DNA from: a virus
Virus genome (UHGV): UHGV-0090252
DNA: 64,000 bases
Reading direction: 5' to 3' (one strand)
Shown here: positions 1,517 to 48,299 of the stretch, in pieces
Layout of the letters: the number at the start of each line of letters is the position of its first letter
Numbering within the stretch: the first letter of the stretch is position 1
Program-made: the position numbers and the translations under genes
Notes under the pieces: model-generated
The model's database searches: none
What the model saw: the letters and a program-made list of their open reading frames with translations, nothing else
What the model was told of the DNA's origin: nothing

Positions 1517-2032
1517 ATGATTGATATCTTCTTACAAGATGCTCATGCAGATTTCCTTAAAGAGATGCTTAAAAAGTTTATGGCTTCACAGTATGAGAAT
1601 GAAGCATCTTTTAAAATAGTTACATGTGGCGATGAAGCTGGTTTTGTTGAGATTGAGCATGAAGGTACTGGAAAGACTGTTTGTAAGTTACCTGATAGTA
1701 TGTTCTCTAAAACGTTCTTAACAAAGACTAGTATAAATGTTAAGCTTGTACCACAGATTGAAACATACTCTGGTACAGATTATCCTAAAGGTTTCAAGTC
1801 ACTGATGAAGTACTTCTTAGATGACTTTGTGAGTAATCTTCTGAGGGAGGTAAAAGAAAGTCGTACAGTGTTAACTGTAGAGAACATAGGAGGAACTATC
1901 AGGGTCACTTCTGACTGTTTTGTTATGAGCCTCTTCGACTTCGTTCCTAAGAATTTTGATGGTATTCTGGATGAAGAAGATGACTGTGTAGACTTTATAT
2001 TGGTTCTTGAGCCAGTTTTTGAGGTTAAATAG
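1517..2032 (+). CDS. hypothetical protein
   Basis: ORF 171 aa. Confidence 0.5.
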   Translation: MIDIFLQDAHADFLKEMLKKFMASQYENEASFKIVTCGDEAGFVEIEHEGTGKTVCKLPDSMFSKTFLTKTSINVKLVPQIETYSGTDYPKGFKSLMKYFLDDFVSNLLREVKESRTVLTVENIGGTIRVTSDCFVMSLFDFVPKNFDGILDEEDDCVDFILVLEPVFEVK

Positions 2033-7960: not shown

Positions 7961-15982
<8,022 letters not shown>

Positions 15983-15983
<1 letters not shown>

Positions 15984-16222
15984 TACATTTTTCCTGCTCT
16001 TCTAAGTTCGTTGTAAGCAATTTCCTCTTTATACGACCTCTGAATCTCAAGAAATTGTCTCAATGATAATAAATCAGAGAATGTCATAGCAAAGAGTTGG
16101 TCAAGTGTTTCTTTACACCCTTCCATACCATAAATAGCAAGCACAAATTTCATCTCGTCTGCTTCTTCATAGGTTGCCTCTACAGCAGCATCAGTTAGTG
16201 GTGTCTGTAGAGTGTTACCCAT
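15983..16222 (-). CDS. tail assembly chaperone, -1 frameshift extension
   Basis: 79-aa ORF in the -1 frame relative to the upstream chaperone; the -1 frame is open from the slippery site to this ORF. Confidence 0.55.
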
Positions 16223-16224
16223 GT

Positions 16225-16623
16225 TTACTGAGAAGTTAGGCTTTTGAAAATGCTTGCTTCGAAAAAACTTCCGAAGTTTGCCTCCAGCGCAAATGCTAAG
16301 TAATCAATGAACTCACCGTAGTTTGCTTGGAAGTACGTATCAATATTAAGTGGGAAGTCGTCAACAGTTGCCCCTTGAAATAATAAGGTAGCCATCTCTT
16401 CAAGGTTAATTTCTTCAATTCTGTCAAAACAAGCTTCAACAAGTTCTTTAAATGGAACCATCGGAGCTTCCTTCTTACCCTTGTCAGTCAGACTTGATAG
16501 CATCTGTGCAAAGGTTGGAACAACAATTTTACCCAACTTCATAGACATCTTAATACCATCTCTTGCCCCAAGCAGAACGATATTTACTTTCTTACCATTA
16601 ATTACTCTAAATTCTGTTTTCAT
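16225..16623 (-). CDS. tail assembly chaperone
   Basis: 132 aa between tube and tape measure; contains slippery heptamer TTTTTTC near its 3' end. Confidence 0.6.
   Translation of the reverse strand: MKTEFRVINGKKVNIVLLGARDGIKMSMKLGKIVVPTFAQMLSSLTDKGKKEAPMVPFKELVEACFDRIEEINLEEMATLLFQGATVDDFPLNIDTYFQANYGEFIDYLAFALEANFGSFFEASIFKSLTSQ
16261..16267 (-). other. programmed -1 ribosomal frameshift slippery site (U UUU UUC)
   Basis: Minus-strand TTTTTTC about 40 nt before the stop of the chaperone ORF; the -1 frame reads through into ORF 15983-16222 with no stop. Confidence 0.5.
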
Positions 16624-16649: not shown

Positions 16650-16686
16650 AACAAAAAAAGGGGAAGACCTTTTAAAGTCTCCCCCT
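16650..16686 (-). terminator. rho-independent terminator after tail tube gene
   Basis: Minus-strand hairpin GGGGGAGAC..GTCTTCCCC followed by a T8 run. Confidence 0.6.
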
Positions 16687-16697
16687 TATAGGATTTA

Positions 16698-17144
16698 TTA
16701 AACACTTGACGCTGGAATTGTAGAAGTGTAGTCTAACTTCTCACAACCAAAAATCCAAGTTTTAGAGTTCTGGTCACGACCAAGTTCAATCTGTGGTAAC
16801 TCCTGCAACCAAGCGTTAATACCAGTTGCCAGAACAGAGCCTGATGGGTCGTAGATTACGAAGTTAGAAGAGATATCTTCTTCAAGTTCCATATTGTCTT
16901 GTTTAGCTTGAATTGCAGAAAGCATCTGGTTAGAGAGAGAAGTCTGCATTAACTCAATCTCAATAGTACCTGTCTTGTCTGCATTTCGTGTCAGAGCAAC
17001 CTGACCACCTGCACCAACAACTGGTGTCACAAGTGGTGATGTTCTCTGTAGACGCAAGAATGAGTCTGGAGCAAAGCCTTCAATAGCAATGCCGTTCCAG
17101 CTACATACAACGTCTTTAGGGGAATATTGCTGATACATAGCCAT
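16698..17144 (-). CDS. tail tube protein
   Basis: 148 aa directly downstream of the sheath gene. Confidence 0.7.
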   Translation of the reverse strand: MAMYQQYSPKDVVCSWNGIAIEGFAPDSFLRLQRTSPLVTPVVGAGGQVALTRNADKTGTIEIELMQTSLSNQMLSAIQAKQDNMELEEDISSNFVIYDPSGSVLATGINAWLQELPQIELGRDQNSKTWIFGCEKLDYTSTIPASSV

Positions 17145-17159
17145 TCCAATTTACCTCTA

Positions 17160-18512
17160 TTATTCGTAAGCCACTGTACCTTTCAAGTCAACATCCAAGA
17201 TAGCCCCTGCTAAGATACCTGCGAAGGTAACGTCTTTCAGGATACGCGCTTTCTTGTCTGCTAAAGCAACTTGAGAGGCTTTAGGAACATTAACTGTGTA
17301 AGATGACAGGAAGTTTCTGTTGACTGCTCTTTGCAGAGAGGTTTCAATGACTTGACGAATACGGGTAATACCAGTATCATCATAAGTAATCTTACCACCC
17401 TTCTGGTTAATTAGCAAGTCTCTCAGAGAAGTTTTCAGGTCTGATTCTAACCAGTCAACACCACGGACGATATCAATCCATTCCCCACCAGAAGTAATCC
17501 CTCTACGAACCACTGGAACACCGCCATCAAGGTCAATAAAGTTACAGTGACGTACATCTAAAGCAGACTTCTGAATACTTGTCAGAGGTCTCTGATTAGA
17601 TGGTTGTAGAGAAGCTGCTACACCAGTTAACTGAGCATTACCCCAAGCAATTGAACCTGCATCATATGGAGCACCATAAGCAATGTATGCCATCTCTGGG
17701 TAATCTTCTGCTGCTGCGTGATGCCACAAGCAAACTGTACGAGTATACATACTCTTAGCAAGCTGTGCTGGAACATCATTTGCACTGTTTAATTCTGTAC
17801 CTTGTAGTGCTGATACATCAGAGTTGGCTGTAAAGAAGATTTTCTTACGAGCCTGAATCTCAGAAGCCATTGCTAAGACAAACTGTTGAGTTCTGTCTTC
17901 TGCTGCAATGAAATACCAGTCAGTAGAATAAGCTTCAATGGCTGCCAGAGCAGTTGCTGCTGTATCGGCAGTTGTACCTGCAATATATACAGTCTGTGCT
18001 GTGGTTGTTACTTTCACAAAGTCATTATCGCCAGCTTTGGTAATAATCATTGTGGCAGAAGCACCACTACCAGTTACGTTCACAGAAACCTTATCTTTGA
18101 TTGTTGGGTCAGCTTCAATCTGTGTTTTAAACTGTTGCAAAACTACCTCAGCAGTATCTGAGCTTTGTGCTGTATACTGGAATGGTTGAGAGATTCCACC
18201 GCCAACAGCGACAGTAATTGAGTAGTCTGTACTTTCGGTAACGGCATCAGGAATTGATACAGTGTACTGCATAGCACGTCTACCAATATAAAGCTGAGTT
18301 ACTTTAGGAGTCTGACTCCAAAGTTGTTTAGCAGCCTTATATGCAGCAGACCTCTCATCGAAATCTTCAGCAACTTCAGTTAAGGAAGTGTAGCCACGCA
18401 CTCTTTCTTCAAAGTTATCTGTTGAAGCTAAGAATAGTGGCAAACCAAAACCTTCTCTTGTAGTTCCTGCGGTGTTCAATGTAATATCTACATTAACAAT
18501 TGGATTCCACAT
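17160..18512 (-). CDS. tail sheath protein
   Basis: 450 aa; size and position in a contractile-tail module. Confidence 0.75.
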   Translation of the reverse strand: MWNPIVNVDITLNTAGTTREGFGLPLFLASTDNFEERVRGYTSLTEVAEDFDERSAAYKAAKQLWSQTPKVTQLYIGRRAMQYTVSIPDAVTESTDYSITVAVGGGISQPFQYTAQSSDTAEVVLQQFKTQIEADPTIKDKVSVNVTGSGASATMIITKAGDNDFVKVTTTAQTVYIAGTTADTAATALAAIEAYSTDWYFIAAEDRTQQFVLAMASEIQARKKIFFTANSDVSALQGTELNSANDVPAQLAKSMYTRTVCLWHHAAAEDYPEMAYIAYGAPYDAGSIAWGNAQLTGVAASLQPSNQRPLTSIQKSALDVRHCNFIDLDGGVPVVRRGITSGGEWIDIVRGVDWLESDLKTSLRDLLINQKGGKITYDDTGITRIRQVIETSLQRAVNRNFLSSYTVNVPKASQVALADKKARILKDVTFAGILAGAILDVDLKGTVAYE

Positions 18513-27688: not shown

Positions 27689-27764
27689 TGGAGAATCCGA
27701 AGGGACTCGAACCCTTATAAACCTGTTTTGCAGACAGGCGCATATCCATTTCTGTCACGGATTC
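27689..27764 (-). tRNA. tRNA-Cys (anticodon GCA)
   Basis: Hand-folded cloverleaf; 7-bp acceptor, T-loop TTCGAGT, encoded CCA. Confidence 0.8.
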
Positions 27765-27768
27765 AAAT

Positions 27769-27861
27769 TGGAGGAAGATACCAGACTTGAACTGGTACAC
27801 CGATTTCTCAGCTACTGGCAGTTTAGCAAACTGCTCCCTTACCTTTTAGGGTTAATCTTCC
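27769..27861 (-). tRNA. tRNA-Ser (anticodon GCT), long variable arm
   Basis: 93 nt, type II structure, encoded CCA. Confidence 0.75.
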
Positions 27862-27862
27862 G

Positions 27863-47966: not shown

Positions 47967-48299
47967 TCAAGATAAATTTTTTCGTTTGCTCAGTTCTTGA
48001 ACAATTACAGCGTAGTAGTCTTTTAAGTCACTGATATTTAAAGCATTTATCAGAGAGTTATAATCATCGACTAACTGAAAATCATCTTTAAAGATGTCGC
48101 TGATTTGATAAGTTCTCGATTGAAATCTGAAACTCATTTCTAACCGTTTTATTTGTTCATCACTTAAACGCTCCAGAAAGCTCATTACAAGGCTATTATT
48201 GACCTGTTGCGTGATTGCCTTACTTGCCAGAGTATAGGCGCTGTACGCCTTATATAGCGCCATAATAGCAATGATTGCAGTGATGCCAGTCATTAGCAT
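47967..48299 (-). CDS. membrane-associated protein, array gene I (translationally coupled to J)
   Basis: 110 aa; N-terminal hydrophobic helix; 7-nt overlap with upstream gene, no leader of its own. Confidence 0.5.
   Translation of the reverse strand: MLMTGITAIIAIMALYKAYSAYTLASKAITQQVNNSLVMSFLERLSDEQIKRLEMSFRFQSRTYQISDIFKDDFQLVDDYNSLINALNISDLKDYYAVIVQELSKRKNLS

Follow-up and report, generated by a model that had tools for sequence, protein, structure and literature searches.

The short tail assembly chaperone gene of the virus genome UHGV-0090252 very probably ends in a programmed −1 ribosomal frameshift site, the heptamer U UUU UUC, at which a long chaperone of 213 aa would be produced. Both frames are open around this heptamer, which lies in slippery phase and is conserved among diverged relatives, in several of which the downstream ORF appears to depend on the upstream ORF for its expression. 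The initial annotation had postulated such a frameshift joining the two chaperone ORFs, and the comparison of related loci lends support to this proposal on the sequence level. It is this comparison, and not the statistics of the single genome, which provides the decisive support.

The chaperone locus and its gene neighbourhood

The window, i.e., the whole stretch of 64,000 nucleotides analysed here, is assigned to Felixounavirus (Ounavirinae, family Andersonviridae) by sequence similarity. The searched segment shows 97.8% identity to Salmonella phage Felix O1, and approximately 300 Felix O1-like records match. When the first 25 kb of the window are compared, the Escherichia phages Tribble, pinkbiff, and Alf5 are among the top matches, with 98-99% identity. 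A chaperone region of the Felix O1 type was also found at 74284-75082 of GU169904.1, the 147-kb record of 'Staphylococcus phage SA1', with 96% identity, which suggests that this record is a mixed or chimeric assembly.

All genes of the region are encoded on the minus strand, in the order sheath, tube, chaperone, T ORF, and tape measure (Table 1). The position of both ORFs is canonical for a chaperone pair of the G/GT type. Thus, gene order as well as Pfam and PHROG families agree with the earlier statement that a canonical chaperone pair is located upstream of the tape measure gene. The 132-aa chaperone ORF matches PF21822 Phage_TAC_15 with E=1.7e-19 and 71 bits, where the curated gathering threshold is 22, and the alignment places chaperone residues 9-124 on profile positions 1-124 of 127. 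Against phrog_3840, the predicted fused protein scores 164 bits over residues 1-151, compared with 148 bits for the short protein (G) alone. The higher score of the fusion is due to the −1-frame residues 132-151, which suggests, as far as profile similarity goes, that the phrog_3840 family includes products read through the junction. No informative match was obtained for the fused protein among solved structures and NCBIfam. The ATG of the tape measure gene overlaps the stop of the T ORF (TAATG).

Table 1. Features of the chaperone region in the window, and slippery heptamers of Vequintavirinae loci.
Feature	Coordinates	Strand	Description
Tail sheath gene	17160-18512	minus	450 aa; phrog_205 'tail sheath', E=2.2e-122; RefSeq Felix O1 homologue is tail sheath
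Putative tail tube gene	16698-17144	minus	148 aa; phrog_280 (virion structural protein) and PF11681; between sheath and chaperone genes
Intrinsic terminator-like hairpin with T-run	16650-16687	minus	13-bp stem with 6 GC pairs, then TTTTTGTTTC; between tube and chaperone genes
Short tail assembly chaperone gene (G-like, TAC-N)	16225-16623	minus	132 aa, zero frame, stop TAA 16227-16225; PF21822 Phage_TAC_15; phrog_1613 and phrog_3840 'tail assembly chaperone'
Overlap of zero and −1 frame, both open	16228-16303	minus	76 nt; a frame change must fall here
SD-like GGAGG	16281-16285	minus	13 nt upstream of heptamer; candidate upstream stimulator
Slippery heptamer T TTT TTC	16267-16261	minus	codons AGT TTT TTC, X XXY YYZ phase
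−1 frame extension (T part, TAC-C)	15983-16261	minus	93 codons, from the re-read C of TTC to TAA 15985-15983
79-aa ORF (T ORF)	16222-15983	minus	within the −1 extension; phrog_4963, tail assembly chaperone, E=2.8e-55
Tape measure protein gene	13749-15983	minus	744 aa; PF20155 TMP_3 and phrog_4036
Heptamer of Cronobacter phage CR8 (L039)	1848-1854		Vequintavirinae
Heptamer of LTH01 (L040)	1848-1854		Vequintavirinae
Heptamer of Avunavirus 24-2-1 (L041)	1773-1779		Vequintavirinae

The terminator-like hairpin between the tube and chaperone genes occupies a position whose homologue is labelled 'terminator' in the record of phage Michonne. With this strong hairpin in place, the chaperone and tape measure genes would be transcribed at a lower level than the sheath and tube genes.

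Near its end, the zero frame of the chaperone ORF reads GGA AGT TTT TTC GAA GCA ... CAG TAA, and T TTT TTC is the sole in-phase heptamer in the whole ORF. Its last base precedes the zero-frame stop by 33 nt and its first base by 40 nt, which reproduces the distance of about 40 nt given in the initial annotation. A TGA at 16306-16304 closes the −1 frame, which is then open from 16303 to 15986, running via the heptamer and the ATG at 16222. Hence, as had also been claimed, it can be read from the heptamer into the ORF 15983-16222 and through to its TAA. A −1 slip would produce a 213-aa fusion in which ANFGSFF is followed by RSKHFQKPNFSVNMGNTLQTP... (also written as ANFGSFF followed by RSKHFQKPNFSVNMGNTLQ...). 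The junction segment of this predicted protein would read ...ANFGSFFRSKHFQ..., with ANFGSFFRSKHFQKPNF... as junction peptide, and a T protein begun at its own ATG would read MGNTLQ... (Met-Gly-Asn...).

According to the proposed mechanism, most ribosomes would terminate at TAA 16227-16225 and yield the short chaperone of 132 aa. A smaller fraction would slip back by one base with tRNA-Phe on UUU in the P site and on UUC in the A site, both tRNAs would re-pair with UUU in the −1 frame, and reading would go on with CGA AGC AAG... up to the stop at 15985-15983, giving the 213-aa long chaperone. The N-terminal 120 residues would be common to the short and the long form. By analogy to gpG/gpGT of phage lambda, both forms may coat the tape measure protein, while the C-terminal extension may recruit the tail tube protein, and the efficiency of the slip would fix the ratio of short to long product. 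In this scheme, it is the ribosomal nature of the slip, its efficiency, and the role of both proteins in assembly which we infer.

The heptamer itself is in good agreement with the rules established for E. coli by Sharma et al., who measured the full set of such motifs (PMC4066793). UUN and AAN codons were the most shift-prone, A-site tetramers were ranked A_AA.G >> U_UU.C > U_UU.U, and motifs performed better with X and Z both pyrimidines or both purines. In bacteria, the principal rule was cognate re-pairing in the A site. U UUU UUC complies with each of these findings.

Slip site and downstream frame in related phages

The comparative study covered 30 loci taken from viral contigs, together with a dozen GenBank regions that carry annotation. 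Every intact Ounavirinae locus examined has TTTTTTC in phase within the overlap, and its −1 frame is open for 75-80 codons past the stop of the short gene. The lineages covered are Felixounavirus, Mooglevirus-type loci (73-80% aa identity), Hafnia-like phages (49%), Erwinia Kolesnikvirus (approximately 40%), and Pectobacterium Wc4. Moving to the Vequintavirinae, three rV5-like phages with a chaperone identity of about 27-30% contain the same in-phase TTTTTTC (Table 1). Here, the heptamer is found within the homologous motif VNYGCFF, corresponding to ANFGSFF in the window, so that both share the pattern N-[FY]-G-x-F-F. The −1 extensions of these three phages comprise 88-92 codons and cover ORFs recorded as separate hypothetical proteins.

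In the loci L023 and L024, the −1 frame opens just 9 nt upstream of the heptamer, and therefore the place of the frame change is bounded narrowly. From the first codon after the heptamer onward, the −1 peptide RSKHFQKP-F is conserved across genera, and the 13 codons that separate the heptamer from the ATG of the window are conserved as −1-frame protein (RSKHFQKPNFS). Among five lineages, the pairwise identity at third codon positions amounts to 0.84-0.89 in two 9-codon windows centred on the site, compared with 0.3-0.45 elsewhere in both ORFs.

A block of 26 nt following the heptamer is identical in Felix-like and Erwinia phages and was considered as an RNA element. This was rejected, since two conserved peptides with overlapping codons, EASIFK in frame 0 and RSKHFQKP in frame −1, account better for the identity. 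In the Vequintavirinae, other nucleotides encode the same −1 peptide pattern, and in Wc4 both frames deviate.

Two records deviate in the length of the T-run. Escherichia phage CL1 (OK040806.1, L037) has T7 instead of T6 at 654-663 (AAGTTTTTTTCGA), homologous to window positions 16261-16270. Its chaperone is a continuous ORF of 213 aa with the layout of the predicted fusion, and the record names it as one 'tape measure chaperone'. Either the homopolymer was misread in sequencing, or this phage produces the long form exclusively. The UNVERIFIED record MG969406.1 of Salmonella phage GE_vB_B3 (L038) shows T5 at the slip site, and its chaperone gene is disrupted by several further indels that break the frame, as would fit sequencing errors in homopolymers.

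Alternative explanations and stimulatory elements

As a background for the heptamer, 69 ORFs of the window with 100 aa or more and no mutual overlap were used, comprising 16,278 codons. They contain 58 in-phase X XXY YYZ heptamers (0.0036 per codon), which corresponds to a chance expectation of about 0.09 for the 25-codon overlap. On single-genome statistics, the slip site is thus only mildly unlikely. Across all 69 ORFs, in-phase TTTTTTC occurs this one time alone, and among the heptamers in the last 25 codons of ORFs, only this one is followed by a long −1 extension, which reaches 80 aa past the stop compared with −21 to 21 for the other ORF-end heptamers. One further ORF, 47969-48299 (minus strand), contains in-phase A AAA AAT and A AAT TTA, 6 and 3 nt before its stop, and its −1 frame is open for 21 codons past the stop.

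An identical 213-aa fusion would result from normal translation if RNA polymerase added an extra U at the T6 run, but we regard such transcriptional slippage as very unlikely. The site is a homopolymer run, the protein would be the same as, and indistinguishable from, the ribosomal product, and the T7 of the CL1 record implies that the run length can vary, at least in sequence data. In addition, a terminator-like hairpin, CTGGAG-GCAAA-CTTCGG, is located 3 nt upstream of the T-run and loosely recalls the hairpin-dependent slippage of a Roseiflexus IS element (PMC5009743). However, efficient slippage in vivo is described for runs of 9 A or T, while shorter motifs need a strong GC-rich hairpin directly adjacent (PMC5009743). 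The locus provides neither a run of about 9 or more nor a strong preceding hairpin: the run has only 6 residues and is kept at this length, the last codon being TTC in every lineage and never TTT, and the hairpin has little stability (−6.5 kcal/mol, z=−0.5) and is not conserved in Erwinia, Hafnia-like, and Wc4 phages. For the latter two reasons, the hairpin was rejected as a terminator-like trigger of polymerase slippage.

Expression of the 79-aa ORF on its own from ATG 16222, perhaps by termination-reinitiation, would require no fusion at all, and many GenBank and RefSeq records do give two separate CDS. The in-frame ATG follows the TAA of the short gene at 2 nt, and because of this distance some independent T protein may be made by reinitiation in this phage. 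As a general explanation, two independent genes are nevertheless highly improbable, as the start codons of the relatives argue, at the sequence level, against dependence on ATG 16222. It lacks a Shine-Dalgarno sequence in the window, and in a near-identical Felixounavirus (L010, IMGVR_UViG_3300045988_004167) it is replaced by ATA at approximately 1902-1904. L025 and L029 carry a Met at a different position. No ATG, GTG, or TTG was found near the 5′ end of the −1 ORF in the Erwinia phages (L032, L033, L035), the Hafnia-like L031, and Pectobacterium Wc4 (L034); the first possible −1-frame start past the end of the short gene follows after 39 codons in Erwinia and 6 codons in Wc4, and lies well inside the ORF in L031 as in Wc4. 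Moreover, the heptamer does not vary, and the −1-frame codons ahead of the ATG show conservation at the protein level. A chance heptamer, in which TTTTTTC does no more than specify a conserved Phe-Phe and takes no part in recoding, is exceedingly unlikely. In its favour are the chance expectation given above and the conservation of Phe-Phe as protein, by which part of the nucleotide conservation stems from coding. Against it, synonymous choices are fixed in all lineages, namely AGT or TGT and not AGC or TGC ahead of the run, then TTT, then TTC. In addition, the −1 ORF is open for 75-92 codons in every lineage despite a protein identity of 27-40%, and several lineages lack any alternative route for expressing the conserved T part.

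For the programmed −1 ribosomal frameshift, a search for a downstream stimulatory structure had been proposed in the initial annotation, and folds in five lineages as well as an 8-lineage consensus revealed none. In the window, no stable structure of the dnaX or IS type begins about 5-9 nt downstream of the heptamer; the 65 nt following it fold with −3.4 kcal/mol at z=+1.41, worse than shuffled sequences. The corresponding 65 nt of four other lineages gave z values from −1.33 to +0.68. For the 108 nt from the heptamer onward z=−1.89 was obtained, and the only clear hairpin begins approximately 37 nt downstream. RNAalifold on the 8-lineage alignment predicted no downstream pairs and no compensatory changes. 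A downstream stimulatory hairpin was therefore rejected as a conserved feature on the basis of pseudoknot-free single-sequence and consensus folds.

Upstream of the heptamer, the SD-like GGAGG forms a predicted duplex of −9.3 kcal/mol with the 16S 3′ end, which places it in the top 1% of all 9-mers of the ORF by strength, and no other site in the ORF matches the anti-SD more strongly. The motif is found at equal spacing in Felixounavirus, Mooglevirus-type loci, Wc4, and the Avunavirus examined. The Erwinia, Hafnia-like, and CR8 phages lack it and use other codons for the same or similar residues. Its function as an upstream stimulator, only partly conserved, is purely hypothetical.

tRNA-Phe(GAA) reads UUC as well as UUU. 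The window contains a cluster of 25 phage tRNA genes at 27689-32580 (minus strand), including a tRNA-Phe(GAA) gene at 28614-28689 (minus strand) that decodes both codons of the slippery site. A more far-reaching scenario appears rather unlikely to us as a whole: the frameshift would operate independently of downstream RNA structure, its rate would be set by the dnaX-like GGAGG where present and perhaps by the phage tRNA-Phe(GAA), the genera would tune their short-to-long ratios differently, and the slip site would have been frozen since before the split of Ounavirinae and Vequintavirinae.

Prior annotation and known systems

Joined CDS of this type already exist in GenBank for Salmonella phage Mushroom (KP143762) and Citrobacter phage Michonne (KT001916), with 213 or 212 aa. 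The note 'ribosomal slippage (47149)' in the Michonne record corresponds to locus position 1233 and thus falls inside the heptamer at 1230-1236. The frameshift is also mentioned in the genome announcements of Moogle and Mijalis (PMC4319497, PMC5543628). In all four phages, the genes are homologous to those of the window and carry the identical heptamer at homologous codons; nothing of substance differs. A literature search for experimental proof in Felix O1 or rV5 phages, such as a junction peptide or a reporter assay, yielded computational annotations only.

RefSeq Felix O1, pinkbiff, and heid, the records nearest to the window, list two separate CDS. Many Felixounavirus records split the chaperone in this way, where the correct product is the joined 213-aa protein. 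In rV5-like records, the downstream part is listed as hypothetical and the join is missing. The present findings are therefore of value for annotation.

In E. coli dnaX, a Shine-Dalgarno-like element is located approximately 10 nt upstream of the slip site. The GGAGG of the window, 13 nt 5′ of the heptamer, resembles this upstream stimulator, but is missing in several lineages. dnaX furthermore combines A AAA AAG with a strong downstream hairpin, whereas no downstream structure was found at the present heptamer. Among myoviruses, Xu et al. 2004 and earlier work on phage P2 reportedly describe the pair gpE/gpE+E' as chaperones encoded between the tube and tape measure genes. The P2 heptamer is reportedly T-rich as well, T TTT TTG, while the protein family differs from that of the window.

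The slip site of phage lambda is G GGA AAG. Lambda is a siphovirus, whereas the phage of the window is contractile-tailed and uses U UUU UUC. Both systems would share the scheme of an abundant short and a rare long form, at a ratio of about 30:1 in lambda according to the account of this phage in PMC5009743. As described there, many short and few long copies form a coat on the tape measure protein, and the tube protein is recruited through the extension; the underlying work is that of Levin et al. 1993 and Xu, Hendrix and Duda 2004, 2013, 2014, cited via PMC5009743.

A related virion module is formed by TAC-N/TAC-NC of the Pakpunavirus/Vandenendeviridae, a different family, compared here on the basis of the 2025 paper on Pseudomonas phage Adele (PMC12846349). 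In 159 Vandenendeviridae genomes, its authors found the short chaperone gene to carry an invariant GTTTTT at its 3′ end, and they report the same motif from 231 Andersonviridae, where a frameshift had been suspected earlier in Mooglevirus annotations (PMC12846349). The downstream ORF of the Vandenendeviridae is routinely mis-annotated as a separate hypothetical gene (PMC12846349).

By its gene position, the −1 frame overlap, the in-phase heptamer, and the conservation in diverged relatives, the feature belongs to the G/GT class (Xu, Hendrix and Duda 2004), of which it is an ordinary and previously described case. Our additions are small and consist of the heptamer at homologous codons in rV5-like Vequintavirinae, the result that no downstream structure was found, and the partly conserved SD-like motif. 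No new question is raised by them. Along this line, the locus represents one more well-conserved G/GT case in contractile-tailed phages, with U UUU UUC common to the subfamilies.
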